Below, piece by piece: positions 9,357 to 64,000 of a DNA stretch of 64,000 nt (its first letter is position 1; every line of letters begins with the position of its first letter). The DNA is from Oscillospiraceae bacterium (lineage in GTDB: Bacteria > Bacillota > Clostridia > Oscillospirales > Ruminococcaceae). Location: contig JBJEQP010000038.1 in the NCBI GenBank assembly GCA_051881815.1, forward strand, positions 820 to 64,819, written 5' to 3'. The translations under genes and the position numbers were made by a program. Below the pieces are notes generated by a model, which did not search any database, had not been told where the DNA came from, and saw nothing but the letters and a program-made list of their open reading frames with translations.

Positions 9357-9409
9357 ATTACACACCCTTTCGACATCTTTTTTAGATGGCTCGAATCTGT
9401 GGGGGACTT

Positions 9410-15754: not shown

Positions 15755-15879
15755 TACTAATAACCATTTAACCTATGGATAAAAGGCGGTGGCTATAATA
15801 CGCCCACTCTGCGTCAAACTTCCTTGATTGGTCGTATTCTATCCACCGTCTTTATTCATAGAACAAATGGTTATTAGAA
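15755..15879 (+). repeat. structured dispersed repeat, copy 3 (short form)
   Basis: 125 nt. TACTAATAACCATTT / AAATGGTTATTAGAA ends; GGTGG/CCACC and AATACGCC/GGTCGTATT arms. A G-U pair in CTATGGATAAA/TTTATTCATAG is allowed only in a plus-strand RNA. Confidence 0.8.
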
Positions 15880-15941
15880 TAAAAACACATTACTCAATAT
15901 TATAACCGTACAGCATTTTTGTAAAATGTAGAAGCATGGTA

Positions 15942-17482: not shown

Positions 17483-17499
17483 ATTTCCGTTCCTCCTTT

Positions 17500-40912: not shown

Positions 40913-40996
40913 TGGTGGAGGAGGGTGGATTCGAACCACCGAAGCCGAAGCAACAGATTTACAGTCTGCCCCCTTTGGCCACTCGGGAACTCCTCC
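40913..40996 (-). tRNA. tRNA-Tyr (GUA)
   Basis: Reverse complement GGAGGAG...CAGACTGTAAATCTG...GGTTCGAATCC...CTCCTCCACCA. Long variable arm, encoded CCA. Confidence 0.9.
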
Positions 40997-41034
40997 AAAA
41001 AAATATCTAAACAGTTTTAAAGCTGTTTAGAAAT

Positions 41035-41110
41035 TGGAGCTGGTGGACGGACTCGAACCCCCGACCTGCTGATTACAAATCAGCTGCTCTACCAACTGAG
41101 CTACACCAGC
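41035..41110 (-). tRNA. tRNA-Thr (UGU)
   Basis: Reverse complement GCTGGTGTAGCTCAGTTGGTAGAGC...CTGATTTGTAATCAG...GGTTCGAGTCC...CCAGCTCCA. Confidence 0.9.
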
Positions 41111-41240
41111 TTGAATCTGATCTTTTTTGTTATCGTTTCAAGCGACTATTACATTCTAACACAAGATGCTTTATTTGTCAATAGGAATTTGCATTATTTA
41201 CAAATCGTTCACATTCTCTGCTTTTCTGACGAAAAATGAA

Positions 41241-41317
41241 TGGTCGGGGCGACAGGACTCGAACCTGCGGCATCTTGGTCCCAAACCAAGCACTCTACCA
41301 AACTGAGTTACGCCCCG
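41241..41317 (-). tRNA. tRNA-Pro (UGG)
   Basis: Reverse complement CGGGGCGTAACTCAGTTTGGTAGAGT...CTTGGTTTGGGACCAAG...GGTTCGAGTCC...GCCCCGACCA. Confidence 0.9.

Positions 41318-42038: not shown

Positions 42039-42042
<4 letters not shown>
41638..42042 (+). CDS. atpI: ATP synthase protein I
   Basis: Small 4-TM protein at the head of the atp operon. GTG start behind GGAGGTG; ATG at 41620 is possible. ATGA overlap with atpB. Confidence 0.7.
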
Positions 42043-43078
<1,036 letters not shown>

Positions 43079-43116
43079 GATTAAAAGAATTTTAGAACGG
43101 GAGGCAGAATAAGCCT

Positions 43117-43617
43117 ATGTCAACTAATTTGGAATTTTTCTCAATTGATCTGACCACGATCGTAGGCACTCTGGCTAACCTTTTGATCCTGTTTCTTGTT
43201 GTCAAGCATTTTCTTTTTGACAAGGTGAACGCTATTCTTGAAGCGAGAAAGACGGAAGTCGAAAAAACATACGAGGAAGCTGACGAAAAGCTGAAAAACG
43301 CCAAGGAGCTTGAGGCTGAATACACCGAAAAGCTTGCAGGCGCAAAGGAAGAGTCGGCTGAAATAATCAAGAATGCCACCAAAAAGGCGCAGAAGCGCTC
43401 CGACGAGATCATTTCCGAGGCTCAGGACGAGGCTCGTGCGATCACGGTCAAGGCTAATGCTGACATCGAAAAGGAAAAGAAACGCGCTGTTAATCAGATA
43501 AAGGACGATATTTCCGATATTGCGATCTCGATCGCAGAAAAGGTCGTTTCTAAAGAGATCGACCCCAAGACCCACGATGAGCTTATTGACAGCTTTATCG
43601 ACGGCATCGGAGAATAA
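43117..43617 (+). CDS. atpF: F0F1 ATP synthase subunit b
   Basis: N-terminal TM plus a long charged helix; operon position. Confidence 0.9.
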   Translation: MSTNLEFFSIDLTTIVGTLANLLILFLVVKHFLFDKVNAILEARKTEVEKTYEEADEKLKNAKELEAEYTEKLAGAKEESAEIIKNATKKAQKRSDEIISEAQDEARAITVKANADIEKEKKRAVNQIKDDISDIAISIAEKVVSKEIDPKTHDELIDSFIDGIGE

Positions 43618-43637
43618 TCGGGAAAGGTCAGGTTCTT

Positions 43638-44180
43638 ATGGCAGGTTCGGTTGGAAATGTGTACTCCGAAGCTTTGTTTGAACTTGCCGCCGAGCAGAAC
43701 TGCGCAGAGGAGACCTTTAACGAGCTTATGGCTCTTAAAAAGATATGGCAGGAAACCCCCGAGGTATCAAAGCTTCTGAAATCCCCTACATTAAGTGTTG
43801 CGGAAAGGCTCGAAGCTGCTGAAAAGATCTTCAAGGGCAGAGTTTCCGACCAGATGTTCAACTTCCTTTGCGTTTTGACCGAAAAGAGCCGTGCGGATCA
43901 TCTCCCGGAGATAGCGGACTGCTACAAGGAGAGATGGTACGACAAGAGCGGAATTGCCGAAGTAACGGTGACTTCCGACAGACCTCTTTCGGACAAACAG
44001 CGGGACAAGCTTATCGACAAGCTTGAAAAGGTCTATGGCAAGAAGATCATTCTTGAAGAAAAGACCGACAGCTCCCTTATCGGCGGAATGAAGGTCAGCT
44101 ACAACGGAACGCTCCTTGACGGTACTGTAAAGAATCGTCTTGAATCGCTCCGCAAACAGATAAAGGGTACGATCGCTTAA
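43638..44180 (+). CDS. atpH: F0F1 ATP synthase subunit delta
   Basis: OSCP/delta-like sequence ('YSEALFELA', 'LIGGMKV'); operon position. Confidence 0.9.
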   Translation: MAGSVGNVYSEALFELAAEQNCAEETFNELMALKKIWQETPEVSKLLKSPTLSVAERLEAAEKIFKGRVSDQMFNFLCVLTEKSRADHLPEIADCYKERWYDKSGIAEVTVTSDRPLSDKQRDKLIDKLEKVYGKKIILEEKTDSSLIGGMKVSYNGTLLDGTVKNRLESLRKQIKGTIA

Positions 44181-44212
44181 AGATCAAAGCATTAAAATTT
44201 AAGCATAAATAA

Positions 44213-45751
<1,539 letters not shown>

Positions 45752-45791
45752 ACCGCTGACTGAAAAAAGGTAAAGAAAGGATGGATTTTGT

Positions 45792-46661
45792 ATGGCTTCG
45801 GGCAATATGAAAAGCATAAAAAGGCGTATCAAGAGCGTTGAGTCCACTCTGCAGATAACCAAAGCCATGGAAGTAGTTTCGTCCTCGAAGCTGCGAAAGG
45901 CAAAGGAAAAAGCAGACAAGGCTCGTCCGTTCTATAAAGCGCTGCATGAAACAATGTGCGAGATCCAATCCGAAAATGAGAACTTCTTTTCTCCCTTCAC
46001 CCGTAAGCAGCAGGGCGCAGGCACGGTAATGCTTGTCGTTATCGCAGGCGACCGAGGTCTTGCAGGCGGCTTTAACTCAAATATCACAAAGCTTGCAGCA
46101 GCTCGTATAAAAGAGCTTACGGAAGAGGGCAGCAAGGTCAAGGTTCTTGCTGTCGGCAAAAAATCAGCCGAATATTTCACCAAGCACGGCTATGACGTTG
46201 TACAGACCTATGTCAATGTCGGTCAGGATCTGCGCATAAACGGCGCAGCTGCCATTGCCGATGATATAGTTGTACCGTATCTTAAAGGCGAGGTCACATC
46301 GGTGGAGCTTGTTTCGACAGAGTTCGTTTCAACGCTCTCACAGGTCGCAAAGTTCAGCCCTATCCTTCCGCTCGATATTCCGAAGCAGGAAAAGAGGGTG
46401 CGTGAGCTTCCGATATATGAACCGTCGCCCGAGGCTGTTTTTAACGCCATTGTTCCCAAATATATCACAGGCGTTGTTTATTCTGCGATAGTCGAAAGCT
46501 TTGCCGCAGAGCAGGCTGCAAGAAGAAGCGCTATGGAAAACGCTTCGGACAACGCAGGAGAGATGATCTCCAATCTTTCGCTCGTTTACAACAGAGCGCG
46601 TCAGTCCGCGATCACTCAGGAGATCACGGAGATCGTCGGCGGTGCTTCCGCACAGGAATGA
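45792..46661 (+). CDS. atpG: F0F1 ATP synthase subunit gamma
   Basis: 'IKRRIKSVESTLQITKAMEVVSSSKL' and C-terminal 'RQSAITQEITEIVGGA'. Confidence 0.95.
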   Translation: MASGNMKSIKRRIKSVESTLQITKAMEVVSSSKLRKAKEKADKARPFYKALHETMCEIQSENENFFSPFTRKQQGAGTVMLVVIAGDRGLAGGFNSNITKLAAARIKELTEEGSKVKVLAVGKKSAEYFTKHGYDVVQTYVNVGQDLRINGAAAIADDIVVPYLKGEVTSVELVSTEFVSTLSQVAKFSPILPLDIPKQEKRVRELPIYEPSPEAVFNAIVPKYITGVVYSAIVESFAAEQAARRSAMENASDNAGEMISNLSLVYNRARQSAITQEITEIVGGASAQE

Positions 46662-46694
46662 CCGTCCGTTTAAACGCCCGATCGCAATTTTTGA

Positions 46695-48134
<1,440 letters not shown>

Positions 48135-49108: not shown

Positions 49109-51073
49109 ATGAAAAAAACACATTCAATACAATCAAAAATAATACTTCTTGCAATTGTTCCGATGCTTTTTATCGCAATTCTTCTGCTTGGGTATGAATT
49201 TTGGGGCGGAACGACGAATATGGCAGCCGCACTTAAAAGCAGTATAAATGAAACCGCCAAAATTTCCGCACAGGCAATAACGAACCGGCTTGTAATATAC
49301 GAAACTGCGGTCAACGAAGCGGCTTCAAACGAATTGTTCACGAACGGGGATATTGACGCTGATAAAGCTGCGGCATTTCTTGAAGAGGTAAAGGAACGAA
49401 ACGGCTTTCTGCGCATAGGCTACACCGATGAAAACGGTGTGAACCAGAACGGCAGCGATTTTTCCGAAAGGCAGTATTTCAAAGACTGCCGTGAAAGCAT
49501 GGCGCCCGTTACATCCGACCCTTATTCTTCAAAGGACGGCAACGGAGCGCTGTCGGTGCTGTTTTGTGCGCCTATCGTCCGCAGCGGAGAATTCTGCGGA
49601 ATTGTTTACGGCGCAGCTGACGCAAAGCTTTTCACCGATATTATAAGCAGCGTTCTTGTAGGCGAAAACGGAATGAACTTTATTATCGACAGCACGGGAA
49701 CATTTATTGCGCACAACGATTTTTCCCATGCAAGCGAGCTTGAAAATCTTATATCCGAAGCCGAAGCGGATCCGTCCTTGTCGGAACAGGCAGCCGTTAT
49801 ATCCGAAATGCTTGAAAATGAGTCAGGCTCGCTTATTTACAACGACGGAGAAACGAAGCGTATTGCTTGCTATGTTCCGATAGAAAAGGGCAGCAGCTGG
49901 GTACTTGCGGTTACGGTAAGCTATGCGGAGTTTATGAAAAATCAGCTTATGGGACTTGCGGTACTGGCAGTATGCACCGCTGCGGTCATAGTTTTAAGCA
50001 TACTTCTGATACTTAAATACTCCGCAAGAATTGTAAAGCCCGTACAGAGCTGCACAAAGAGGATAGAGCTCCTTGCGGAAGGCGATCTGAAATCCGATAT
50101 TGAAGCCTGCACCTCAAATGATGAAACAAGAGTGCTTGTTGAATCTGCAAGACGGACGATAAAGCATCTCAACAGTATGATAAAGCATATTTCCGAAACA
50201 CTTGAGCAGATGGCGGAAGGGGATTTTACCCATGAAGCCGAGGGAAAGTTCAGAGGGGATTTTGAACCGATCAAAGCGTCGCTTAACAATATCATGATCT
50301 CGCTGCGGTCGGTGCTTGCGGATATAGACGGGGCTTCTGCGTGCGTTTCCGAAATATCGGAGCAGGTCGTTGACACTTCCCGTCATCTTGCCGAGGGCGT
50401 AAATCATCAGACTGCGCTGATAAACGAGATAAGCAGCACCTTTGAAAGCATGAAGGAAAGCGTCAAACTCAATGCCGATAATACCTCGGCTGTTCTTGAG
50501 CTTGCATTAAAGACAAAGGACGGGGTAAAAACGAGCGGCGAGCAGATGGATATGCTTCTTTCCGCTATGAAGGAAATGTCCGATTCCTCAAAGGAGATAC
50601 AGTCGATAAACGATACAATAGGCGATATTGCTTTCCAGACTCATATACTTGCGCTGAACGCTTCCATTGAAGCTGCGGCTGCAGGGGAAGCAGGTAAGGG
50701 ATTTTCCGTTGTTGCGGCAGAGGTCGGCGAGCTTGCTTCAAAATGCGGAGAAGCGGCTTCACGTACTACCTCGCTTATCGAACGAACGGTACATGCTATC
50801 TGTACAGGAATGGAGCTTGCTCAAAAGGTATCGGGTTCCTTCGGAGAGGTTGAAAAGGACACAGATGAAATGGAGAAGGACATTGCGGATGTTTCTGCTT
50901 CGTCCGAGGAACAGGCAGCCTGCATAACAAGCGTAAGCGACAAGATGGATATGATATCATCCGTAGTGGAAAGCACCTCGGCTTCGGCAGACAGAGCTGC
51001 GGAAATCAGCGAAAAGCTGAAAAATGAAGCAGAGGCTCTAAAGGATCTTGTTGCAAAATTCTCTCTGACATAA
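49109..51073 (+). CDS. methyl-accepting chemotaxis protein with double-Cache-like sensor and HAMP
   Basis: TM1, periplasmic Cache-like domain, TM2, HAMP, and signalling hairpin 'DIAFQTHILALNASIEAAAAGEAGKGFSVVAAEVGELA'. Confidence 0.85.
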   Translation: MKKTHSIQSKIILLAIVPMLFIAILLLGYEFWGGTTNMAAALKSSINETAKISAQAITNRLVIYETAVNEAASNELFTNGDIDADKAAAFLEEVKERNGFLRIGYTDENGVNQNGSDFSERQYFKDCRESMAPVTSDPYSSKDGNGALSVLFCAPIVRSGEFCGIVYGAADAKLFTDIISSVLVGENGMNFIIDSTGTFIAHNDFSHASELENLISEAEADPSLSEQAAVISEMLENESGSLIYNDGETKRIACYVPIEKGSSWVLAVTVSYAEFMKNQLMGLAVLAVCTAAVIVLSILLILKYSARIVKPVQSCTKRIELLAEGDLKSDIEACTSNDETRVLVESARRTIKHLNSMIKHISETLEQMAEGDFTHEAEGKFRGDFEPIKASLNNIMISLRSVLADIDGASACVSEISEQVVDTSRHLAEGVNHQTALINEISSTFESMKESVKLNADNTSAVLELALKTKDGVKTSGEQMDMLLSAMKEMSDSSKEIQSINDTIGDIAFQTHILALNASIEAAAAGEAGKGFSVVAAEVGELASKCGEAASRTTSLIERTVHAICTGMELAQKVSGSFGEVEKDTDEMEKDIADVSASSEEQAACITSVSDKMDMISSVVESTSASADRAAEISEKLKNEAEALKDLVAKFSLT

Positions 51074-51123: not shown

Positions 51124-51166
51124 GGAGCCGCTGCAGGAGCTCACATACTGCAGCGGCTCTGTTTTT
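51124..51166 (+). terminator. chemoreceptor gene terminator
   Basis: agccgctgcag / ctgcagcggct stem followed by TTTTT. Confidence 0.8.
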
Positions 51167-51420
51167 AGCAATATTTATCGACATATATTTCCAAAAAATT
51201 CATATATTTGCTTTAAAGGGATAATATATGCGATTATGTATATGTTATAATTAAAGTGTTATCATTATTTGTATATGGCTTGTTAAAAAAATATCAATAT
51301 CCGCTTTGGTATTGCAGCAATTTTTCTAAAGAAAAAGCTCTGACGGGATTTTATTTTTGAGCCGATGGGTATTGCTGCGAAAAAAGCAAAGTTTACATTA
51401 TACATACAGGAGGAAAAAAT

Positions 51421-52638
51421 ATGGCTTTTATTGATGTAGTTGAATGGTCGCCTAAGGATAACAGCGAATATGCGCACCGTTTTCCCCACGACAACCTCAG
51501 CACAGGAACCCAGCTTATCGTAAGGGAGTCGCAGGAGGCGGTCTTCTTCTCAAAGGGACAGATCCTCGGCAAATTCGGTCCGGGCAAGCATACTCTTTCC
51601 ACCGAGAACCTTCCCTTGCTGCGCAACCTTTTCGGAATTCCGTTCGGAGGCAAAAATCCGTTCTTTGCAGAGGTATGGTTCGTCAACAAGACAGCTCCGC
51701 TTAACATCGACTGGAAAACGACCTCGATGCGTTTTATGGATCCCGATTACGGTCAGATGATCCCTCTGGTCGCAAGCGGCAGATACGGACTAAAGGTGAG
51801 CGACGCCGAGCGCTTCCTCGTTCGTCTTGTCGGAACGATGCAGTCCTTTACGGCTCGTGAACTGACCGATCATTTTCAGGGTGCGATGATCGCAAAGACA
51901 AATTCATCAATAATGTCCTTTATGAATACGAACAGGGTCGGCATAAATCAGATAGCGGCTTATCTCGACGATCTTTCCAAGTTTATAAAAATGCCGATGG
52001 CTGAATTCTGGGAGGATTACGGATTCGATCTTGAAGGCTTCTATATCACGGGTGTCGATCTTGACACATCCACTCCCGAGGGCAGGAAGATATCGGAAGC
52101 GCTTTCCGACCGTTCCGCACAGGCTATTGCAGGCTATACATGGCAGCAGAAGCAGACCTTTGCGACCGCAAACAATGCTGCAAACAACAATTCCTCGATG
52201 GGCATTCTCGGGGTGGCAATGATGACGGGTGCTTTATCGAACGGCGGCGGAGTAAATGCCGCAATGCAGCCGCCCCCGAATAATCAGTATCAGTTCGGCA
52301 ATCAGAATATGGGAAATCCGAACTTCGGCGGTCAGAATTACACAGGAGCGCCGACTTATGCTCATGCCAGAAATGAAGTATTCTGCTCGAACTGCAGCAG
52401 AAAATTCTCTGCGACTGCGGCTTTCTGCCCTCATTGCGGAAATAAATACAATCCTTGTCCTTCCTGCGGAGCGGATAATGCGCAGAGCGCTTCAAGATGC
52501 GTTACCTGCGGAGCAATGCTCGTTTCACAGAACAGCTGCGGCGATGTTTGCGGCAAGTGCCATACGCCTGTTCAGCCGGGACTGAAATTCTGTCCGAACT
52601 GCGGCAGCAAGCTTCAGGCTGACAGCTTCAGGATGTAA
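51421..52638 (+). CDS. SPFH/Band-7 domain protein of the YdjI/COG4260 type with Q/N/G-rich linker and three C-terminal zinc ribbons
   Basis: 'FIDVVEW...LIVRESQEAVFFSKGQILGKFGPGKH...FAEVWFVNK' resembles 'virion core protein-like' SPFH proteins. C-terminus has CSNC..CPHC, CPSC..CVTC and CGKC..CPNC. AGGAGG RBS. Confidence 0.75.
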   Translation: MAFIDVVEWSPKDNSEYAHRFPHDNLSTGTQLIVRESQEAVFFSKGQILGKFGPGKHTLSTENLPLLRNLFGIPFGGKNPFFAEVWFVNKTAPLNIDWKTTSMRFMDPDYGQMIPLVASGRYGLKVSDAERFLVRLVGTMQSFTARELTDHFQGAMIAKTNSSIMSFMNTNRVGINQIAAYLDDLSKFIKMPMAEFWEDYGFDLEGFYITGVDLDTSTPEGRKISEALSDRSAQAIAGYTWQQKQTFATANNAANNNSSMGILGVAMMTGALSNGGGVNAAMQPPPNNQYQFGNQNMGNPNFGGQNYTGAPTYAHARNEVFCSNCSRKFSATAAFCPHCGNKYNPCPSCGADNAQSASRCVTCGAMLVSQNSCGDVCGKCHTPVQPGLKFCPNCGSKLQADSFRM

Positions 52639-52650
52639 AGGGGCGGCAGT

Positions 52651-53358
52651 ATGAAGAAAAACAGTAATTCGTCCTTTCTGCTTGTTATCTTCTGCTTCGG
52701 CTTGATAATTGCCGGGGGAGCTTTGTTCCTTATAAAGGATATGTTTGAAGGCAGAACGGGGACATATATTTTTACCTGCACAAGTGTGATCCTTGTTTAT
52801 ATTGCGGCTTTTCTGCCGTTTATATCGGGACTTATTTCCGGGAATACGGCACAGCTCGTTGTGAGCGGTGCGGTCTACTACAAGGGAATGTCCGCTTATG
52901 CGGTGGTTTCTGCCGCTGCGGTGTATCTTGCATTTTCGGTGATACCTTTGAAATTTGCGGTTGCGATCCAGCTTGTGGCGCTGTTCGTTTTCATTATCTA
53001 TGTCTTTATGTCGAAGGTGACATCCGATACGATAGGCGGCGTTGAAGAGGAGGAAGCGGCAAAGAAGTCGATGATCTCCGATATGCGCAGCAAGGCTTAT
53101 CAGCTCTCGCTTATGACAGAGAATCAGGACAGCAAAAAGGTCAAGGATGCGGTCAAGAGGATGAACGATGATCTGAGATATCTTTCTCCGAACGGTTCGC
53201 AGGAGGCCTATGACCTTGAATGCAGAATGTCCGCTGTTATCGACAGTATGATCTCGGACGCATATTTCCGATCGGCAGGGGTCATGTCGTCGGAAGCGCT
53301 TGAAACAAAGTTCGAGGATTTTGAATTCTTATATAAGCAGAGAAAAAATATTTATTAA
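52651..53358 (+). CDS. 4-TM membrane protein with helical cytoplasmic tail, unknown family (operon gene 2)
   Basis: Four hydrophobic helices in residues about 8-125, then a charged helical region. 12 nt after gene 1. Confidence 0.6.
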   Translation: MKKNSNSSFLLVIFCFGLIIAGGALFLIKDMFEGRTGTYIFTCTSVILVYIAAFLPFISGLISGNTAQLVVSGAVYYKGMSAYAVVSAAAVYLAFSVIPLKFAVAIQLVALFVFIIYVFMSKVTSDTIGGVEEEEAAKKSMISDMRSKAYQLSLMTENQDSKKVKDAVKRMNDDLRYLSPNGSQEAYDLECRMSAVIDSMISDAYFRSAGVMSSEALETKFEDFEFLYKQRKNIY

Positions 53359-53373
53359 GAGAGGGATAAAGCT

Positions 53374-55359
53374 ATGACTGGAAAGATATTTGAAAATTCT
53401 TCCAATATTTATCAGGATCAGGCGAAGATTCTTTTTAATTATTACAAGACCGCTGCCGAAACGATCGTATCTGCCCAGATGAAGGAGGAGCAGAACAAAG
53501 CCGATCTTATAAAGCAGCGTGATGAATGTATCCAAAATTTTAATAAAACAAAGACGATATTCATTATATCATTTATTGCCGCAGGTCTTGGATTGCTGCT
53601 CACATTTGTATTTCCTTTTTTTGGACTGGTGTTTGTAGCAGGTCTTGTTGTCGGCATTATTAATGTTGTCAAAAATCAAAAGATGAAAAGGTCAACGGAG
53701 GATTTTGAAAAGCTTATCAAAGAATCGGATCAGCGATATGCAAATATCAGAATGGATTACAAGGTAGATAAGATCGGCGTTGTGTATGTACCCGTTGCAA
53801 CGAGAGTGCCTTTCGAGGATCAGAGCTTTGTGCTTGACCATACGGGTGAAACGACCGACACGGGCTTCAAGCTTACGGTTTTAAGGCAGCCCGATGAGTT
53901 CCAGGATTCTGTTCGTCAGCTCACCGAAACGCTTGATACGCTCCCTGTTGTCGAGGACAACGATCAGACCGAATCTATCAACACATCGGAGTATTCTACC
54001 TCCGTTCAGTCGCTTACACTTAACGATTATATGGGAAATATTGACCGTCAGGTGAGAAATATCAGCTATCTTCTCGGAGATAACGACGATGTTTCCGTTA
54101 ATATCCCCGTAATCACACCGCAGAGCAATACAGCAAACTACCTTAAAGAGTTTTCGACCGATGATACCAACGGACATCCCGTTGTAAAGGTGTTCGATGT
54201 ATCCTTTGAAGACAGACTGGAGAAGTTTGCGTCCCTCAACGCCTTAAAGGATCAGATAAAGAATTCCGATGACGCTGACAGCAATGAATATATGAAGCAT
54301 CTCATGCAGAAGATCGCCGAATCCGTTCAGCTTTTCACCCAGACAAAGGTTTCCGGCTCTGCAAAGCTTGCCGATTATACAACTTCAATTTTCAACACCG
54401 TTCTCAAAGCAGGCTATACGCAGTATTCACCGAATCTTGAAGCGGAAGAGATCGAAAGAGTACGAGCTGCCGACTTTGACTACCGTTCTTCCGTAAATGA
54501 ATACACTCCGTTCTCCCTTAAAGCAAGCTCTATCGTAAAATATGAGCTTTTCTCCAAGAGCTGGGTCGCAGAGGACGGTTCAAGAACCTCCATGCCGTTC
54601 GGTATGCACCAGATCGACGAGGAGATCTTTATGCCTGTCATTGCTGCTCTTATGGAGGAAACAAGAGTTGAAAGATTAAAGATCTACAACAACATCGAAG
54701 ATCAGAAGAGAATGTATCTTGAAAGATGGTCTTCCGAAACGGGCAATTATTTCCGTGATAACAGAAAGACCGCCGATGAGCTTATCACTCATATGCGTGA
54801 AACCTATGCCGATTATATGAATGCGTATAATATGTATAAGTCGCTCACCGATACGAGCGGTACGATGAAGCAGAGCGGCAGGCTTGAAGACGGCGAGGTC
54901 AAGGAGATAGATTCCCAGGCTGAAATGATCGCAGGCTTTGAAGCGCAGGCTGCACAATGCAACCGGCAGCAGGAAGAATTTGCCGACTTCATGGATCGCA
55001 TCCAGGAAAATATCGAAATGAGCACCCGTGAGTTCTCTCACATTGAATATTACGAGGGTTCACTCCGTGATACCGTTCCTCACGAAACAGCCGTTGCATT
55101 CTCGAATATACGCGGTCTTGATTACAGACACAGAAAGCTCGTCGGTATCAATCCTTACGTTGCAAACCGTGCGGAGCTGCCGCCCGAGCCGATAACGAGT
55201 CCCGATATCATTGAACATATCAACATCGACCTTATAAAGCAGGTCGAAGAGGATGTAGGTCAGGCTGTTGCCAATGCTGCCGATCACAGCGAAGTTCCTG
55301 CAGATGAAGCAGCAGCGACCGCCGAGCAGGATCAGGAAAAGATCCCCGTGACAGTATGA
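53374..55359 (+). CDS. 661-aa TM-hairpin protein with large acidic cytoplasmic domain, unknown family (operon gene 3)
   Basis: N-terminal helix, two adjacent TM helices ('IFIISFIAAGLGLLLTFVFPFFGLVFVAGLVVGIINVV'), then about 550 aa with no motif I recognise. Confidence 0.6.
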   Translation: MTGKIFENSSNIYQDQAKILFNYYKTAAETIVSAQMKEEQNKADLIKQRDECIQNFNKTKTIFIISFIAAGLGLLLTFVFPFFGLVFVAGLVVGIINVVKNQKMKRSTEDFEKLIKESDQRYANIRMDYKVDKIGVVYVPVATRVPFEDQSFVLDHTGETTDTGFKLTVLRQPDEFQDSVRQLTETLDTLPVVEDNDQTESINTSEYSTSVQSLTLNDYMGNIDRQVRNISYLLGDNDDVSVNIPVITPQSNTANYLKEFSTDDTNGHPVVKVFDVSFEDRLEKFASLNALKDQIKNSDDADSNEYMKHLMQKIAESVQLFTQTKVSGSAKLADYTTSIFNTVLKAGYTQYSPNLEAEEIERVRAADFDYRSSVNEYTPFSLKASSIVKYELFSKSWVAEDGSRTSMPFGMHQIDEEIFMPVIAALMEETRVERLKIYNNIEDQKRMYLERWSSETGNYFRDNRKTADELITHMRETYADYMNAYNMYKSLTDTSGTMKQSGRLEDGEVKEIDSQAEMIAGFEAQAAQCNRQQEEFADFMDRIQENIEMSTREFSHIEYYEGSLRDTVPHETAVAFSNIRGLDYRHRKLVGINPYVANRAELPPEPITSPDIIEHINIDLIKQVEEDVGQAVANAADHSEVPADEAAATAEQDQEKIPVTV

Positions 55360-55378
55360 GGCGGAGGTGAAGCAATAA

Positions 55379-56284
55379 ATGCCAAGTTTTGATTTTGTTG
55401 TTGACACAAAGCCGATGGCTGATTCTGTCGATAAGGTTTCGGGTCACGTTGACGCTACGACAGCTGCTGTTGTTGCTATGCAGGCGGCAGTTATCCGTTC
55501 GGAAGAAAAGGCTGCGGAAAAAATATGCGAAAACGTTGACAGCGGCTTTTATAACCTTATCCGCTCACAGATAAGCATGAAGCTTGCTACATATTTTACG
55601 GAAATGAACGCAAAGCTTGCACTGCTTATGGAATATGCAAAGGCGCTCGGCAAATCTAAAGATCGTATGGAAAACGATTATAATCGTTTGAGAAGAGAGT
55701 ATCTGAAGTTTTTCCGCGGACTTGACGCTTCGCTCGAAACCCGTGTTGCACAGCTGGACAAGGCTGCAATGGAGCTTGCGGATACAAGAAAAAGAGTCAT
55801 TCTCGGCAAGTTCCTTCGTGAAGTTCCCGAAACCATGACTCTTTCCGAAGAAGCAGACGCAGCGGAACAGCGCATCGTTTCGGCAAGATTAAAGAGCAAA
55901 ACGAGCAGGTCGCTGAAATTCCTCGGAAACAAGGTGCACGAGAACCTTGAATATGCTTCACTTATGGATTCTCTTATGGAGAAAAAGCCCGTTGAAAAAG
56001 AGTATGAAGAATACATCCCTGTCGTTTATTCTTCCGAGCAGAGTATGCTTATGAGCGAATCCTTCGTGCTGCAGCTCTATTACCCCGAATATCTCTCCGA
56101 CTCGGTCAAAAACAGCATTGGTCTTGATGTCCTTAATCAGATAGATTCTTTAACGGAAAAGCCTTCGCCCGAATTTGAAAAGCAGGAAATATCGAAGGAA
56201 TTCTGCAATATTGCCGCTTCCGCTCCGCTTGACCCGAGAGTTTCAAAGGTGATGATGGAGTTATTTGAAAGAGGTGGCTGCTGA
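55379..56284 (+). CDS. helical protein, unknown family, paralogue of next gene (operon gene 4)
   Basis: Shares blocks with gene 5: 'V(D/E)TxP..(D/S)SV', 'VDAxTAxVxAMxAA', 'GFYNLI', 'RLRxxY...FxGLDxxLxxR', 'IPVxY'. Confidence 0.6.
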   Translation: MPSFDFVVDTKPMADSVDKVSGHVDATTAAVVAMQAAVIRSEEKAAEKICENVDSGFYNLIRSQISMKLATYFTEMNAKLALLMEYAKALGKSKDRMENDYNRLRREYLKFFRGLDASLETRVAQLDKAAMELADTRKRVILGKFLREVPETMTLSEEADAAEQRIVSARLKSKTSRSLKFLGNKVHENLEYASLMDSLMEKKPVEKEYEEYIPVVYSSEQSMLMSESFVLQLYYPEYLSDSVKNSIGLDVLNQIDSLTEKPSPEFEKQEISKEFCNIAASAPLDPRVSKVMMELFERGGC

Positions 56285-57342
56285 TGAGCTATACCAGATC
56301 ATATTCCTCCTCCGTTACTGTAAGCGGTTCAAAATCGGTTTCTTACCCTGCGAGCCAGTACGGCGGCACGACAACCGTAAGCTACTCCGAAACTGTACCC
56401 ATTAACATTAATATCACCGTTGAAACAAGTCCGTTCGACAGCAGCGTTAACAGAGCAGGCAGAAACGTTGATGCGCTGACGGCTTCCGTTGCGGCAATGA
56501 ATGCTGCAAACTGCGCCGCTATAAAGGCAAACTCCGAGAAGGTATCTCAAAGCCTTGTCAAGGGCTTTTACAACCTTATCAACAACGATATTGCGCTGAA
56601 AAAATCGGAAAATAACAGCCAGCTTCAGTCCAAGATCGCTCTTCTCAATGCTCTCGCCAACGACACACGGGACAAACACGCAAGAATGTCCGAGGATATT
56701 GAAAGGTTAAGGGCGCACTACAATACGATATTCAAGGGACTTGACGAGGACCTTGCAAAGCGTATAAAGGAGATCGACAAGCCTGCCTTCAACCTCAGCG
56801 AAAACATCCGCAAGGGAGTTATCCTGAAGCCGTATCTTTCTATGGCGGCATCTACCGTCAGCGACGCCGATACGGATCAGCAGACAAAGAGCAGCATAAC
56901 GATAGCACGCATACGCCGCAAGGTTTCCGAGGTCATAGAAACTATGGCAGATTCGCTCGGAAAAAACCTTTTGTATCGCCGTATGATGAAGGACACCTTA
57001 TGGCATACACGGGCGGATGAAGCGGCGCCGATATATATTCCCGTTGCATATATGCTGTCGGATGGCATAAACAGCGCAGGAAAAACGGATGAATATTATT
57101 CTTCGGACAACGGCTGCAAGGATCGTATAATTTCTTCTGTAAGCTCATTCGTCCGCTCGAAGGACGGTGCTGAAGCAAGTGCTGTCCCCGAGGAAGAGCT
57201 AAAGCTCATAGATCAGGCTTTTTCAAGTATGGTCGAGGAAAGCTTTTTAAATCAGGATAACACGGACAGCTATAATGAACGCGTCTATTCCGAGATACTT
57301 CGGTTATGGCACAGCGGAAAAGCGGAACTGAAACAGATATAA
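56284..57342 (+). CDS. helical protein with S/T-rich N-terminal extension, paralogue of previous gene (operon gene 5)
   Basis: The ATG overlaps the gene 4 stop (TGATG). Same conserved blocks as gene 4. Confidence 0.6.
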   Translation: MSYTRSYSSSVTVSGSKSVSYPASQYGGTTTVSYSETVPININITVETSPFDSSVNRAGRNVDALTASVAAMNAANCAAIKANSEKVSQSLVKGFYNLINNDIALKKSENNSQLQSKIALLNALANDTRDKHARMSEDIERLRAHYNTIFKGLDEDLAKRIKEIDKPAFNLSENIRKGVILKPYLSMAASTVSDADTDQQTKSSITIARIRRKVSEVIETMADSLGKNLLYRRMMKDTLWHTRADEAAPIYIPVAYMLSDGINSAGKTDEYYSSDNGCKDRIISSVSSFVRSKDGAEASAVPEEELKLIDQAFSSMVEESFLNQDNTDSYNERVYSEILRLWHSGKAELKQI

Positions 57343-57363
57343 ATATGAATGTGGGTGAAACAA

Positions 57364-58341
57364 ATGCAGGAATTAAATGAAATAAGGATAGGGGATCAGG
57401 AGATCGTCCTTAACAATAATCTTGTAAAAACAAGTATTCTGCCGCAAGGCTCAAAAGACCTCGGCAGAAACATAAAGATCCAGGGCAACACCGTAGTTGA
57501 AGGCAGTACATTCGGCAATAATATCAGCATCAAGGACGGAAAGGTACAAATGATGGGTGCGGTGTACGCAAACAAGGAGCTTCATATCGAAAATGATATC
57601 TCGGGAACGGTAGTTTTCAACAAAGCCGTTGCAAGCGCCGAGAGCATAGCGTCTTTTGTCGTATCGGGCAGAGTTATATACGGCTCGGATGTCAACGCAC
57701 CGCAGATAAAGCTGAAAAACTGCTATATAGGCGGAAGCGTTTTCGGAGCAGAGGTGTACCTTGAAAACTGCGTAGTGCTCGGAGGAATTTTTGCGTCAAA
57801 AAGCGCTATCATTTCCGACTGTATTTTCGGAACCTTCAATGCGCCGAGCGTTGAGCTTGCAGGCGTAAACTATATGCTTTATCCTGCGGCATTTTCGGTA
57901 GAGCCGCTGACATATCTTCCGCAGGCAGAGCTTTATAACATTTCGTTGGCGCATCTCGGAGCTTTATTCAAGGGCGAAAAAGAAGATCCCAACACAGGCA
58001 AGATCAAAATGAACCTTGAAACGGACAGCCAGCGTACAGTTCTTGTCGATGAAAGCGGTGCGACCATCACGGTAAACAGCTATTCGATATCGGGAAGAGT
58101 GCTTGTTGCGGATGTGATAGACTTTGAAAAGCTGGAAAACCACTTCCTTATCGGTGCAGGAGCACTTAACAGCCAGATACTAAAGGTTTACTCCTTGACA
58201 AAGGAGGACGGAACAAGATCGGAAGAGCTTACTATCGAAAACATTTCCGAATTCTTCTTCAAAATTCTCAGCGGTGCTGTTCAGATACAGGATGTATCGG
58301 GAAATATCAGCTTCAGTGAATTGAAAAAATCATTTGAATAA
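57364..58341 (+). CDS. beta-helix repeat protein (bactofilin-like N-terminal half) with unknown C-terminal domain (operon gene 6)
   Basis: Repetitive roughly 18-20-aa units, e.g. 'IKIQGNTVVEGSTFGNNISIKDGKVQMMGAVYANKELHIENDISGTVVFNK...'. An alternative ATG lies at 57349. Confidence 0.55.
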   Translation: MQELNEIRIGDQEIVLNNNLVKTSILPQGSKDLGRNIKIQGNTVVEGSTFGNNISIKDGKVQMMGAVYANKELHIENDISGTVVFNKAVASAESIASFVVSGRVIYGSDVNAPQIKLKNCYIGGSVFGAEVYLENCVVLGGIFASKSAIISDCIFGTFNAPSVELAGVNYMLYPAAFSVEPLTYLPQAELYNISLAHLGALFKGEKEDPNTGKIKMNLETDSQRTVLVDESGATITVNSYSISGRVLVADVIDFEKLENHFLIGAGALNSQILKVYSLTKEDGTRSEELTIENISEFFFKILSGAVQIQDVSGNISFSELKKSFE

Positions 58342-58345
58342 AAAA

Positions 58346-58389
58346 AGTCCATAGAGATCCCGTATAAAGGGTTTTCTATGGACTTTTGT
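58346..58389 (+). terminator. terminator of the six-gene operon
   Basis: agtccatagag / ttctatggact stem followed by TTTT, 5 nt after the stop. Confidence 0.8.
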
Positions 58390-58491
58390 GCTGTTGAAGG
58401 AGAATGACCATGAATGTATGACAGATACAGAATATGCGTTAGATCATTCGCTGAACTTAAGGAGTTTCGCTCTACTGCCAAAGATCATTCA

Positions 58492-58665
58492 TACTAATAT
58501 CAAATCAACCGTAAGACTAAATCCTCGGATATAATAATCCAATTCTGTGTCAAGCTCCCTTGACAGGCGGCAGCCTGCCTGCGGTCGCCCTCCAAGGTAA
58601 ACAAGTTTACCTACTTGGATTATTCTATCTGTCGGCTTTGTCTATAGAACGATTTGATATTAGTA
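58492..58665 (+). repeat. structured dispersed repeat, copy 4
   Basis: 174 nt. TACTAATATCAAATC / GATTTGATATTAGTA ends, AATAATCCAA/TTGGATTATT arm, GTCAAGCTCCCTTGACAGGCGGCAGCCTGCCTGCGGTCGC core identical to copy 1 apart from one deleted base, extra AGGTAAACAAGTTTACCT hairpin. Confidence 0.85.
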
Positions 58666-58686
58666 TCAGACCTGCGGCAAGCTTTG

Positions 58687-60836: not shown

Positions 60837-62105
60837 TCAATTCAGAATATTAAGTCCGTAGTTCCTGCAAAGATCCTCAAGTCCCCTCGGATAGATCATT
60901 CCGAGCGGAGAGATACGGAAGCCGTCCTCGCTGCGGATAAGCTCAATGCCCACAACAGTTCCGACGTCGAGCGGCTTCGGCAGCATAAAGATATAGTTTG
61001 TTCCGTCTTCAAGCGTTATTGAAACGGCAGGATTGGAAAGATCGCTGAAATTGAGGTTCAGCGGATTGTTATAGATAGAATATGCAATGTCTATCTCCGC
61101 AACATCATGCGGTATCATATCGAAGTTTATGTGGAAGACCTTTTTGTCGGGGGCGTTAAGAAGCTTGACTCCGCCGCCGATAGAGTGGTCGTTGCCGAAG
61201 AAAACGAACCTGTCGTTCTGTGTGACGGTTCCCTCCTCGTTCGTCAGGAATGCAAACGCATCGACCTCCATAGGGAAGTCCTTGTTGTCGTAGAGAAGCT
61301 CTATCTGCGCAGAGGGGGAATCCGCCTTGACGAGCATTCCACGTTCAATTATGAGAAGCTCATGGGGTTTCTTTTCATCATCATAAGGCATCGGCGCAAG
61401 AAGTGCGGCTTCGATGTCCTCCTCTTCCTCCTCGGGATAGATCATACCCTGCTCGCTGACCTCTTCATCGGTCGGCGCAGGCTCCGCTTCATAAACGAGA
61501 GCGCCGTCCTCAAAGCCGTAAGCGTTTTCCGCAGCTTCGCCCGAAATATATATCCTTCGTTTAACGCCAGTTTCAAAAGAAAGCTCACCATAAAGCAGAG
61601 TTCCGCTTTTCATCGGCTCGATCTCAATAAGGACGGTGTTTTCGCCTGCCGAAAGCTCGGGTTCGGGGATAGTTACTCCGCTCGATTCGGAAACGAGCCT
61701 TGCTGCGGTCGGGAGCATTACAAGGATGCGCACCGAGCAGCCTTTATCGGCAGGAAATACGCCGACATTTATCACGGTCGGTATGCCGAAATAGCCTTCC
61801 TCGCCGTCAATGCCCGTGACCTTTCCGCTGACGGTCACATTGTTAAGGATGGTGCCTTTGCAGGACGAACAAACCGCCGTTCCCGTTCTCGGGTCAAGAT
61901 GCTCGGCAAGCAGGTCGTTTATCTCAACATCGGGTGCGTTTATCGTCAGCGCAGTTCCTCTGCCGCACAGAAGCAAAGCGCCGTTCCCGTATATCGTGCA
62001 GGGAACGCTGACGGTAAAATTGCCCTCGTATTCGCCGTGAGGGATCCTCACTTCACCGTTCAATTCAACAGAATCAAGCCTTTTCTGAAGCTCCGTTGCG
62101 TTCAC
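60837..62105 (-). CDS. TerD-domain fusion protein (unknown beta-rich N-terminal region, acidic linker, C-terminal TerD-like domain)
   Basis: C-terminal about 160 aa: 'VDAFAFLTNEEGTVTQNDRFVFFGNDHS...FHINFDMIPHDVAEIDIAYSIYN...NFSDLSNPAVSI...GIELIRSEDGFRISPLG...GLEDLCRNYGLNI' follows the TerD/CAPAB pattern. GTG start behind AAGGAGG overlaps the upstream stop (GTGA). Confidence 0.7.
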   Translation of the reverse strand: MNATELQKRLDSVELNGEVRIPHGEYEGNFTVSVPCTIYGNGALLLCGRGTALTINAPDVEINDLLAEHLDPRTGTAVCSSCKGTILNNVTVSGKVTGIDGEEGYFGIPTVINVGVFPADKGCSVRILVMLPTAARLVSESSGVTIPEPELSAGENTVLIEIEPMKSGTLLYGELSFETGVKRRIYISGEAAENAYGFEDGALVYEAEPAPTDEEVSEQGMIYPEEEEEDIEAALLAPMPYDDEKKPHELLIIERGMLVKADSPSAQIELLYDNKDFPMEVDAFAFLTNEEGTVTQNDRFVFFGNDHSIGGGVKLLNAPDKKVFHINFDMIPHDVAEIDIAYSIYNNPLNLNFSDLSNPAVSITLEDGTNYIFMLPKPLDVGTVVGIELIRSEDGFRISPLGMIYPRGLEDLCRNYGLNILN

Positions 62106-64000
62106 GAACGCACCTCCTTTGAGCCGCATTCAGCACAGCGCTTTTGGCATACTTTTCCTAACTGCAGCGCTGTTATCCCGGTCAATAAAGCGTCCACTGC
62201 CGCAGAGCCGATAATAACGGCGACGCTCAAAGCAGGGGAAGCAATACCGATGCCGAAAAACATTGACGCAGCGTTAAGGACAAGCAGAACTATTCGTATA
62301 ATATCATAGATCGAAGCGCATTTTTTGATCTCTTTGGAGCAGCCCATTCCGACTGCCGCAGAATATATGCCGTCGGAAGCTATGCAGTCAGCGATCTCCT
62401 TTGCGGCAATGCAGCTTTCGGCAGCCGCAAAAACTGTGTTTGCTTCCTCACATTCGAGCGCATCATGAACATCGACCGCAGTTGTTCCAACCGTTTTCCC
62501 TGCCGACCTTGCGATACCGATGAGCTTGCTCTTATCGCATCTGCCCGTGATGATCTTTACCCTTTTAAGAGTCTTTGCCGCTTCGGCACGCCCCATTTCG
62601 GCAAGCTCCTTGTATGAGATAACATCGTCTGCTCCTGCGCTTGTGACAGCCTTGTCGGGAAGAGCGGCTTCATCATACGGAACAAGAAGTATCGGTCTGC
62701 TGCCGTGTTCCGTGAGTTTTTTGAACGCAGTTTCGGCAATGCCGCGGTATTTTTCACGAATCGTCATCATTCCGATGAAGACCTTTCTGCCGTCCCAAAG
62801 CTCGGCAGCGTAGGCGATAACAGAGTTGCCCTGGAAAATAAGCTCCTCCGCAAGTGCATTTACTGCCGCAGCGGAGGAAAATTCCTTTTCCTTGCCCGTT
62901 CCGTCAAAAAAGCTTTTGCAGCCGCTTATAATGCTGCCCGGGTCGCCTCTTAAAAAGCGTTTATAGCCGTTTGCAGGAAGGTCGCCCTTTACAAGTCCTG
63001 CGTTTATTTCAAGCTCGACTGTACTTTTGAGCCTATCTGCCATAAAGGTCATTTCAGCGGCTTCGTATGGGTCAGCACTTATTATCCTGCCCTTGTTTAT
63101 AAGAGCAGAGGTGTTTTCCGCAGCCGCATTTGCTGCGATCGTTCCAAGCGGATAAGGGATCTCGTAAAATTTCTGTACCATTGAGCCGCTTCCGTCCGTG
63201 AAGCCGACAGCAACAGGCTTTCCGTCCGTTACAAATCCGCTTCTGTCAACGAAAAGCACATCTCGCTTCGGCGTGAGAGTTCTCAGATCTGCGCCGCTGC
63301 GGCGTATCTCGGTTCTGCTTGCGGTGAGGAATTCTGCAAGCGGGTCTTTAAGTCCTGCTCCTGCGATTAAAATAAGCGATGCAAACAGAGCCGTTTTCAT
63401 CGGGAGTAAGCTCATTCCCTCTCCGATTTTTTCAGCACGGTAAGCTGTCCATAATGTAAGCGCAGCCGTCAGAACCGAGGCAATTATTATACAAACAGTA
63501 TATCCTTTCAAAGATATTACAAGAGGTTTGGCAAATTTCTCCTCAACACGGGTGACCTTCATTACAGCGTGACCCGATGTGACGAGTGTTCCCTTCTCGA
63601 GTGTGTACTCGCCCGTGATATCTTCGTCGATCTCTTCTTTAAGATCTCTGCGCACAAGGTCGGTCCTGCCGTCTGTGTCGATGGTGATATCGCCCGTCTG
63701 GACTATACCCTCGGCAGGAACGATATCCCCTGCGGTGAGCAGAACATAGTCGCCCTTTACGATATCCCCCGTTTTGACCTCTGCAACAGAGTTGCCGCAG
63801 CGGTAGACCTTGCATTTACTGTCGTTTCGGAGCGAATGGGACTTCCCTTTTCGGCGCAGAAGTGCGCTTTCCCATACACAGACAATAAACAGAGCCGCAG
63901 CGTTGGCAATGACCGACATAACGCAGGGCAATATGCTACGAAGTCCGCTGCCCGAGGAAAAGATTATCCCGAAGCCGATGCAGCAAAGCACGATTATTAT
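62102..64000 (-). CDS. P-type ATPase-like membrane protein with degenerate catalytic motifs; 5' end outside window
   Basis: A-domain pattern 'VKTGDIVKGDYVLLTAGDIVPAEGIV' and P-domain 'VLFVDRSGFVTDGKP' where DKTGT is expected. No TGES. GDGxND region reads 'TTAVDVHDAL'. Frame open to the window edge. Confidence 0.7.
   Translation of the reverse strand: MIIVLCCIGFGIIFSSGSGLRSILPCVMSVIANAAALFIVCVWESALLRRKGKSHSLRNDSKCKVYRCGNSVAEVKTGDIVKGDYVLLTAGDIVPAEGIVQTGDITIDTDGRTDLVRRDLKEEIDEDITGEYTLEKGTLVTSGHAVMKVTRVEEKFAKPLVISLKGYTVCIIIASVLTAALTLWTAYRAEKIGEGMSLLPMKTALFASLILIAGAGLKDPLAEFLTASRTEIRRSGADLRTLTPKRDVLFVDRSGFVTDGKPVAVGFTDGSGSMVQKFYEIPYPLGTIAANAAAENTSALINKGRIISADPYEAAEMTFMADRLKSTVELEINAGLVKGDLPANGYKRFLRGDPGSIISGCKSFFDGTGKEKEFSSAAAVNALAEELIFQGNSVIAYAAELWDGRKVFIGMMTIREKYRGIAETAFKKLTEHGSRPILLVPYDEAALPDKAVTSAGADDVISYKELAEMGRAEAAKTLKRVKIITGRCDKSKLIGIARSAGKTVGTTAVDVHDALECEEANTVFAAAESCIAAKEIADCIASDGIYSAAVGMGCSKEIKKCASIYDIIRIVLLVLNAASMFFGIGIASPALSVAVIIGSAAVDALLTGITALQLGKVCQKRCAECGSKEVRS

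Follow-up and report, generated by a model that had tools for sequence, protein, structure and literature searches.

We have analysed a stretch of 64,000 nucleotides (the window) from a metagenome-assembled genome of the Oscillospiraceae, and in particular a group of six open reading frames (ORFs) on its plus strand at positions 51421-58341. The six are co-directional, are separated by gaps of −1 to 21 nt, and are flanked by two strong terminators. Their products are NCBI MGN0599037.1 to MGN0599042.1, encoded on a contig of 68 kb, where the first is named 'SPFH domain-containing protein' and the remaining five 'hypothetical protein'. The unit and its boundaries comprise the following features.

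51125-51167, plus strand: terminator of the upstream chemoreceptor (MCP) gene and 5′ boundary of the unit; hairpin and T-run read in the sequence
51168-51420, plus strand: intergenic region, presumed promoter and 5′ untranslated region (UTR); about 35% GC, with the AGGAGG ribosome-binding site of gene 1 at its 3′ end
51421-52638, plus strand: gene 1, predicted cytosolic SPFH protein of YdjI/SamI type, 405 amino acids (aa); Pfam Band_7_1 and zinc ribbons
52651-53358, plus strand: gene 2, predicted polytopic membrane protein, 235 aa; hydropathy and a 35-member alignment
53374-55359, plus strand: gene 3, predicted membrane-anchored long-helix protein, 661 aa; hydropathy, alignment and AlphaFold2
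55379-56284, plus strand: gene 4, predicted soluble helical protein, 301 aa, paralogue of gene 5; BLASTP, hhalign and AlphaFold2
56284-57342, plus strand: gene 5, predicted soluble helical protein, 352 aa, paralogue of gene 4; BLASTP and hhalign
57364-58341, plus strand: gene 6, bactofilin-like protein, 325 aa; periodicity and sub-threshold Pfam Bactofilin matches
58343-58389, plus strand: intrinsic terminator that closes the operon, with a hairpin of 15+3 bp and a U-run 3′ to it; RNA folding and sequence

A sequence-only reading of the window had described six co-directional ORFs at these coordinates, the first five of 405, 235, 661, 301 and 352 aa and the last ending at 58341, with junctions of 12, 15, 19 and −1 nt after genes 1-4, and this layout is borne out. 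Gene 6 had been given as about 325 aa behind a gap of 6-21 nt. A start at 57364 is indicated alike by homologous N-termini, by a GGGTGA Shine-Dalgarno-like element and by the gene call of NCBI, and this settles the length at 325 aa and the gap at 21 nt. Every gene has a candidate ribosome-binding site of its own, as had been stated, with Shine-Dalgarno-like elements upstream of genes 1-5 and the GGGTGA element upstream of gene 6. The start of gene 5 overlaps the stop of gene 4 (TGATG), implying translational coupling of the two.

The terminator scan gave four matches in all, where 7.5 would be expected from shuffled sequence. The two internal matches on the plus strand (51528 and 52899) are weak, in keeping with the earlier view that no terminator interrupts the genes. 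At the 3′ end the hairpin and U-run noted before are indeed strong; the segment 58343-58387 folds with ΔG = −26.3 kcal/mol (z = −8.72), equalled by none of 200 shuffled sequences. The AT-rich stretch of some 250 bp that had been placed after the preceding terminator is also present, with 35% GC. A scan for a promoter of gene 1 gave nothing above shuffle expectation, and across the loci compared below there is no shared promoter or operator 5′ of gene 1, this region being kept only in the closest relative (L006). Rfam gave no RNA element in or beside the operon. In four of the other loci (L011, L012, L013 and L014) there is a stable-looking hairpin within the 40 nt 5′ of the ribosome-binding site of gene 1, for example GACCTGCCGCGGCAGGTC. 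The sequences of these Clostridial hairpins are unrelated between loci, and they may be 5′-UTR stabilisers or regulators.

The genes are thus co-directional, with short or overlapping junctions and no internal terminator, and are syntenic across distant taxa. From this layout and synteny we predict that the six form a single transcription unit.

Character of the six proteins

What kinds of protein does this operon encode? The first can be assigned with ease. The Pfam model Band_7_1 (PF13421) matches residues 19-216 of gene 1 (51475-52068) at a score of 130.9 bits (cutoff 24; E = 6.6e-38). A linker rich in Q, N and G follows, and then three CxxC...CxxC zinc ribbons at residues 318-400 (52372-52620), in three stretches matched by Pfam DZR and Zn_Ribbon_1. 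Hydropathy analysis reveals no hydrophobic segment, there being no hydrophobic 19-mer. The B. subtilis protein YdjI likewise has a band-7 domain and a C-terminal zinc ribbon (PMC11237479). By its domain content gene 1 therefore belongs with the Band_7_1/YdjI kind, as the sequence-only reading had it, down to the three ribbons. Comparison with all PDB sequences gave nothing usable for this protein. Three ribbons are also present in the homologues of Clostridia, Spirochaetes and Coriobacteriia, and those of Bacteroidota have four. In a Rikenellaceae locus (L042) two further Band_7_1-like ORFs (15220-16350 and 17291-17953 of that locus) lie directly 3′ of gene 6, matching gene 1 by phmmer with E = 6e-37 and 3e-4.

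Gene 2 had been described as a protein with four transmembrane segments and a helical tail. Hydropathy gives three to four hydrophobic spans within residues 4-126, followed by a polar, helical tail that is predicted to be cytoplasmic. The family is poorly conserved (14-37% identity among 35 aligned members). The tail (53170-53358) contains a near-invariant LRYLSPS sequence (R176 and P180) and a C-terminal RK, which together are likely to form a short linear interaction motif. No NfeD or OB-fold domain was found by Pfam in the window protein or in the 35 family members.

The transmembrane hairpin and acidic remainder reported for gene 3 are both evident: there is a single hydrophobic hairpin at residues 58-102 (53545-53679), and the net charge of the protein is −41. 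Conservation is highest in the N-terminal 40 residues and lowest in the hairpin itself, and a GV.YVPVA motif at residues 135-142 (53776-53799) is invariant. An AlphaFold2 model calculated from a 74-sequence alignment (predicted local-distance score, pLDDT, 65; predicted template-modelling score, pTM, 0.27) comprises very long helices at residues 412-501 and 515-555 with a few small β elements; β hairpins at residues 388-399 sit where distant relatives have a zinc ribbon. Using the model, Foldseek found no match in PDB or BFVD at E < 0.01. The top neighbours, none of them significant, were BAR domains, the PspA hairpin (4whe; E = 2.6 and TMq 0.12, from a model of pLDDT 65) and α-pore-forming toxins, and we discarded the BAR, AhlB, PspA and tape-measure neighbours as generic long-helix likeness.

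Relatives of gene 3 number more than 1,400 at 90% clustering, every one of them unnamed. A profile hidden Markov model (HMM) searched against 1.84 billion representative sequences gave 382 hits, mostly fragments, together with a distant full-length subgroup. The subgroup shares the same layout, except that a complete CPxC...CPLC zinc ribbon takes the place of the two β hairpins of the window protein, and the corresponding region in the window thus appears to be a degenerate form of the ancestral ribbon. Some Bacteroidota (L051, L055, L056, L058, L069 and L080) have extra zinc ribbons at the C-terminus of gene 3.

Genes 4 and 5 had been taken for paralogous helical proteins, and their relationship is clear both by BLASTP (31% identity over 216 aa, E = 2e-30) and by hhalign over the full length (probability 100%, E = 5e-57, 303 columns). 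In gene 4 the N-terminal 130 residues are conserved, including VDT.PMA and GFY.LIRSQISQK, as is an IPV near residue 214; gene 5 begins with a conserved extension of 40 residues rich in Ser, Tyr and Gly. AlphaFold2 predicts long helices for gene 4 with pLDDT 63 (the pTM of the gene 3 and gene 4 models is 0.23-0.27), from a shallow alignment in which the homologues fall into two clusters, and Foldseek found no match to this model in PDB or BFVD at E < 0.01. A strand-like Y-[IV]-P-V motif follows a helical stretch in gene 3 (135-142), in gene 4 (near 214) and in gene 5 (near 253). It is the invariant GV.YVPVA in gene 3, and its proline is invariant in genes 4 and 5; the motif may serve all three proteins as a docking peptide for the same partner. 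Apart from this short motif we found no relationship of gene 3 to genes 4 and 5, for which the hhalign probability is below 1%.

Gene 6 had been called a β-helix repeat protein. Bactofilin windings are about 17-18 residues long, and the repeat of gene 6 agrees with this. Profile autocorrelation of residues 26-175 peaks at an offset of 17 residues, with 16, 18 and 34 also among the top offsets, and no such signal of about 17 residues is present in residues 176-325. The predicted β helix occupies residues 12-170 (57397-57873) and gives way to a C-terminal domain of about 150 residues that is conserved. The Pfam Bactofilin model (PF04519) aligns below threshold with 20 of 41 members of the family, at 12-23 bits compared to a cutoff of 27.9; the best match has 22.8 bits and E = 1.1e-4, and covers positions 6-88 of the 98 in the model. 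The window protein itself does not match the model at E ≤ 1. We therefore describe gene 6 as a diverged, bactofilin-like β-helix protein, whose membership of the family is unproven. It is the most evenly conserved of the six subunits.

Zinc ribbons are always present on gene 1, in three or four copies, and at times also on gene 3 or gene 6. In the Coriobacteriia the extra ribbons are on gene 6, which there has 453-520 aa (L023, L025 and L026). Their recurrence on these three subunits suggests that the ribbons could be a shared interaction module of a complex.

The sequence-only reading could name no family for genes 2-6. In single-sequence scans of Pfam, NCBIfam, PADLOC and PHROGs none of the five has a significant match, and scans of 35-41 diverse members each of the gene 2, 3, 4 and 6 families bear this out. 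Genes 3-6 have no match among all PDB sequences, using phmmer and HMMs of 41 diverse members. The claim thus stands for genes 2-5, and has to be amended for gene 6, which is bactofilin-like. These searches, together with Foldseek for genes 3 and 4, place genes 2-6 in no characterised system. The same family members, and gene 5 of the window, contain no enzymatic domain. The stated lack of a PspA-, NfeD- or YdjG/H-like partner is also upheld, since no such Pfam or NCBIfam hit occurs in genes 2-6; PspA_IM30 (PF04012), TPM and their kin are missing from these and from the 35-41 members of the gene 2, 3, 4 and 6 families. When HMMs of 41 members of genes 3, 4 and 5 were compared with PspA, Vipp1, Snf7 and CHMP in a PDB sequence set that includes the PspA chain 4whe, only noise was obtained (E > 0.1). 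Our literature search found no description of the six-gene cassette, nor, in the library searched, a paper in which 'bactofilin' and 'SPFH' occur together. The cassette is thus undescribed in the literature found, and four of its families (genes 2-5) are without a model in the libraries searched.

Distribution and descent of the cassette

We scanned one genome per GTDB species (185,579 species genomes), pre-filtered by two peptide motifs, so that the prevalence obtained is a lower bound. This gave 113 relatives, of which 80 loci were fetched, and 85 loci were compared in all. The first three neighbourhoods, at 54-66% identity, already contained the same six genes in different surroundings. When the window proteins were mapped by phmmer, 62 of these loci had gene 1 to gene 6 in this order and in a single orientation, a count that includes a few repeats of one contig; in most of the others the locus is truncated at the edge of a contig, or gene 2 is too divergent to be picked up by phmmer. 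The loci with this order come from Clostridia, Treponema, Coriobacteriia, Bacteroidota and Fibrobacteria, and such recurrence goes far beyond chance. The linkage of the homologues, offered earlier as something to be looked for across Clostridia, is therefore very strongly conserved and reaches well beyond them. Two outcomes that had been named as refuting the sequence-only reading, placement of genes 2-6 in a characterised system and lack of conserved linkage, were thus not obtained. The junctions remain tight, with median gaps of −1 to 19 nt, that between genes 4 and 5 being −1 nt (79 loci). No seventh conserved gene lies beside the cassette in the 85 loci, and the flanks vary.

Carriers include Oscillospiraceae, Lachnospiraceae, Butyrivibrio, Treponema, Coriobacteriaceae/Olsenella, many Bacteroidota (among them Alistipes, Porphyromonas, Capnocytophaga granulosa ATCC 51502, Dysgonomonas termitidis and Labilibaculum filiforme), and one genome each of the Fibrobacteria and Ignavibacteria. 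The cassette is intact in at least five bacterial phyla. It is abundant in gut and rumen metagenomes, and the last three of the Bacteroidota named, as well as Bacteroidales bacterium CF, are cultured. In one locus from a Bacteroidota metagenome-assembled genome (L035, 8026-14903) every gene of the cassette is fragmented, by pseudogenisation or by frameshift errors of a long-read assembly.

Across 41 genomes the pairwise identities of genes 3, 4, 5 and 6 are correlated with r = 0.93-0.97, and the genes therefore have one common history. Conservation between phyla is 42-55% for gene 6 and 37-53% for gene 3. The gene 3 proteins of Treponema are 53% identical to those of Clostridia, which are 58% identical among themselves, and this closeness suggests horizontal transfer of the cassette as a whole block.

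The cassette had been called SPFH-led, which is correct for the order of the genes but not for their descent. Five genomes have genes 3-6 without genes 1 and 2, and with unrelated genes upstream. In a distant subgroup, from metagenome contigs (L086, L089 and L090), a gene 3-like gene is followed by a single gene of the 4/5 type and a gene 6-like gene; the SPFH gene and gene 2 are absent and the neighbours are unrelated. From these loci we deduce that the ancestral unit consisted of gene 3, one gene of the 4/5 type and gene 6. The evolutionary core is thus a triad made up of a long-helix protein with transmembrane hairpin and zinc ribbon, a helical protein and one that resembles bactofilins, from which the six-gene form has arisen by duplication of the helical gene into genes 4 and 5 and addition of the pair formed by the SPFH gene and gene 2. 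One triad of the distant subgroup (L089, 5869-15304) is flanked on one side by a TPR-caspase (Peptidase_C14) gene and on the other by sigma-70-like and Lon_C-like genes.

The surroundings of the operon in the window include the following annotated features.

42039-48134: F-type ATP synthase operon (a, b, δ, α, γ and β)
49109-51073: MCP gene upstream of the operon, with MCPsignal, dCache and HAMP domains
60837-62129, minus strand: TerD-domain protein of 430 aa, with TerD in the C-terminal 150 residues (E = 3.6e-16)

Also present are three tRNA genes and the leader of ribosomal protein L10; together with the ATP synthase operon, these housekeeping surroundings lie at 42039-48134, 40916-41317 (minus strand) and 7258-7386. 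The TerD-domain protein, whose N-terminal 275 residues have no family match, is encoded downstream of the genes for a HAD hydrolase and HtrA. A dispersed element of about 176 nt (58491-58666) with terminal inverted repeats of 52-55 nt, ATACTAAT...ATTAGTAT, is situated in the interval that separates htrA from the operon terminator. Further copies occur at 4350-4510, about 14868-14962 and 15833-15879. The element has no Rfam match at the gathering score, and could be MITE-like (a miniature inverted-repeat transposable element) or a structured RNA. The sequence-only reading had set the operon in a block with Ter-like genes, htrA and this repeat. All of these are present in the window, but they are not conserved partners elsewhere; we rejected a conserved linkage of TerD, HtrA or the MCP to the cassette, and the TerD-domain protein is not linked to it in other genomes. 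Elsewhere in the window, at 9080-9691, a 280-nt unit is present as two direct copies in tandem, which have 76% identity and a spacing of 332 nt.

A candidate scaffold and its rivals

All six products are predicted to be cytoplasmic or anchored in the inner membrane, with a recognisable catalytic domain in none, and the genes, translationally packed, are passed on as a block and co-evolve. We tentatively propose that they may well encode a single non-enzymatic, multi-subunit scaffold on the cytoplasmic face of the membrane. The contacts between its subunits and its physiological output we infer from the domain content and linkage established above. Gene 3 would be the membrane anchor of the assembly. 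With its highly conserved N-terminal peptide and its long coiled-coil arms it would engage genes 4 and 5 as a heterodimeric adaptor, gene 4 being the proposed adaptor subunit, and the adaptor would in turn recruit or nucleate polymers of gene 6 under the membrane that do not depend on nucleotide. Gene 2, the proposed membrane tether of the SPFH protein, would hold it through the conserved LRYLSPS tail, and the SPFH oligomer could then confine or stabilise the patch. This would parallel the SamG/SamH to SamI to PspA logic of B. subtilis, with a different effector. By the same analogy the output is likely to be local stabilisation or organisation of the cytoplasmic membrane, in envelope stress or in a microdomain, rather than a chemical reaction.

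The location of the operon by the ATP synthase genes, in a core-chromosome setting, and the long helices predicted by AlphaFold2 for genes 3 and 4 also speak for such a scaffold. Several observations weigh against it. The roles given to the subunits (genes 2 and 3 as anchors, 4 and 5 as coiled-coil adaptors, 6 as polymer and 1 as SPFH organiser) are suggested by composition and analogy. The models of genes 3 and 4 are of moderate quality (pLDDT 63-65, pTM 0.23-0.27), and their extended helical form is possibly in part an artefact of modelling. The Bactofilin scores of gene 6 lie under the Pfam threshold, and the HMM of its family retrieves no bactofilin from PDB. A conserved stress-type promoter was not found upstream of gene 1 across the loci compared. 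The distribution is patchy, with 113 hits in 185,579 species genomes by a motif-limited search, and the suggested horizontal transfer would be expected sooner of an accessory or conflict system than of one that maintains the membrane as a housekeeping function.

The functions offered by the sequence-only reading (membrane remodelling, envelope stress and anti-phage activity) are not fully separable, but the last of these found no support. An anti-phage or abortive-infection system would be a membrane-anchored sensing complex, in which gene 2 or gene 3 depolarises or disrupts the membrane on infection in the manner of Zorya. The cassette is self-contained with variable flanks, its distribution is patchy, with likely cross-phylum transfer between Treponema and Clostridia of gut and rumen, and the distant triad that adjoins the TPR-caspase and Lon-like genes has a context like that of conflict systems, though at that locus only. 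The coiled coil of gene 4 also bears a weak likeness to the ZorA tail (NCBIfam E = 0.003, far below cutoff). However, PADLOC gives no significant match for the six proteins, a lone Cas5 match of gene 5 (E = 0.04) being noise, and nuclease, NTPase, protease and other typical sensor or effector domains are absent from them. Gene 3 is missing from 72,556 plasmids, 50,697 phage genomes and 2.9 million viral contigs, and we therefore rejected carriage by a mobile element or prophage within these collections. The 127 nearest flanking ORFs give only scattered, singleton, generic PADLOC matches with no island signal; the context in the window is core chromosome (ATP synthase, tRNAs and htrA); and the conservation of genes 3 and 6 between phyla is unusually high for a defence system. 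We found no paper linking SPFH-led operons of this type to defence, and we regard a defensive function as unlikely.

Could gene 6 instead form the filament of a morphogenetic or positioning cytoskeleton, with gene 3 as anchor, genes 4 and 5 as adaptors placing wall synthesis, division or another machine, and the SPFH protein as an accessory? Coiled-coil partners are typical of bacterial cytoskeletal adaptors, and the bactofilin-like signal in gene 6 agrees with this. Bactofilins are established scaffolds for morphogenesis, chromosome organisation and motility (PMC12448750, PMC10945521). Yet none of the 85 loci has a linked gene for a peptidoglycan enzyme (such as an M23 peptidase), ParA/B, flagella or division, the carriers differ greatly in shape and envelope (rods, spirochaetes, monoderms and diderms), and patchiness within lineages is unexpected of a shape determinant. 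This role is quite improbable on the present evidence. A machine that remodels membranes to form vesicles or an organelle-like compartment, with genes 3, 4 and 5 as curvature-generating polymers like ESCRT-III or BAR proteins, would account for the long-helix models and for the non-significant Foldseek neighbours noted for gene 3, and links between SPFH proteins and ESCRT-III are known in B. subtilis and archaea (PMC10936438). Against this, the Foldseek matches all have E > 1 and TM scores < 0.2, PspA and Snf7 Pfam domains are absent from the window and the family members scanned, the HMMs of genes 3-5 find no PspA, Vipp1 or CHMP in PDB, and there is no linked AAA+ gene of Vps4 or PspF type. 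We consider it very improbable.

Returning to the scaffold, a stronger form of the proposal is that the triad represents a new class of nucleotide-independent, membrane-anchored cytoskeletal machine, with its own transmembrane anchor and coiled-coil adaptors, that has been joined repeatedly by an SPFH cage. We regard this as a real possibility, though less likely than not. If it were true, a new class of sub-membrane organiser would have spread horizontally among anaerobic bacteria of gut, rumen and sediment in at least five phyla, with a cellular role (for example the containment of membrane damage, or phage-exclusion patches) unlike that of any SPFH or bactofilin system described so far. Few families of bacterial membrane scaffolds are as widespread as the SPFH proteins and the bactofilins, and the functions of both are poorly understood. 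The cassette provides a strictly conserved genetic link between SPFH and bactofilin-like proteins, together with four families for which there is no model in the libraries searched. It indicates that an SPFH protein of YdjI/SamI type can be wired to an effector other than PspA, and so offers a comparative handle on the role of cytosolic SPFH proteins. With cultured carriers and abundance in metagenomes, the hypothesis is directly testable.

Comparison with known systems

The cassette resembles Zorya and its kin in being a multi-gene unit with membrane-anchored and long coiled-coil parts, patchy distribution and variable flanks. It differs from them in having no homology (PADLOC was negative), no MotAB-like channel, nuclease or helicase, and in lying outside mobile elements and defence islands in the collections and flanks searched. 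With the SPFH-NfeD pairs, in which stomatin or flotillin is associated with YuaF or YqiJ, it shares an SPFH gene followed directly by the gene of a small polytopic membrane protein. Gene 2, however, contains no NfeD or OB-fold domain, gene 1 is predicted to be a cytosolic Band_7_1 protein and not to be inserted in the membrane, and four more conserved genes follow on the 3′ side. Genes 1 and 2 are thus not an SPFH-NfeD pair.

Bactofilins form nucleotide-independent filaments that are usually associated with the membrane (PMC12448750). Like the members of PF04519 such as BacA and CcmA, gene 6 is predicted to be a β helix with a repeat of about 17 residues, and nearly the whole of the bactofilin model can be aligned in half of its family; it is likewise soluble, and encoded with membrane anchors. 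Its helix is longer, at about 160 residues compared to about 100, and it has in addition the conserved C-terminal domain of about 150 residues.

The closest parallel in organisation is with samGHI/ydjGHI-pspA. In B. subtilis the cytosolic SPFH protein SamI (YdjI) is recruited by two membrane proteins, SamG and SamH, and in turn recruits the ESCRT-III homologue PspA and stabilises its membrane foci (10.64898/2026.02.06.704340; PMC8581546). The cassette lacks PspA/IM30, the TPM-domain protein YdjH and the ZnR-NTF2-transmembrane protein YdjG, and because PspA, YdjG and YdjH are absent the operon falls outside the Psp-linked ydjFGHI/samGHI system. Its partners are instead four families without a model and a bactofilin-like protein, its SPFH pair is dispensable in evolution, as the triad-only loci illustrate, and its distribution is mostly outside the Bacilli. 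In both systems, nevertheless, the SPFH protein is of the Band_7_1 type, without a transmembrane segment and with C-terminal zinc ribbons, and it is encoded together with a candidate membrane recruiter and soluble, helical candidate effectors. By analogy the wiring logic is likely to be the same, leading from a membrane protein through a cytosolic SPFH protein to a polymer beneath the membrane, and the cassette would then be a sub-membrane scaffold organised by its SPFH subunit.

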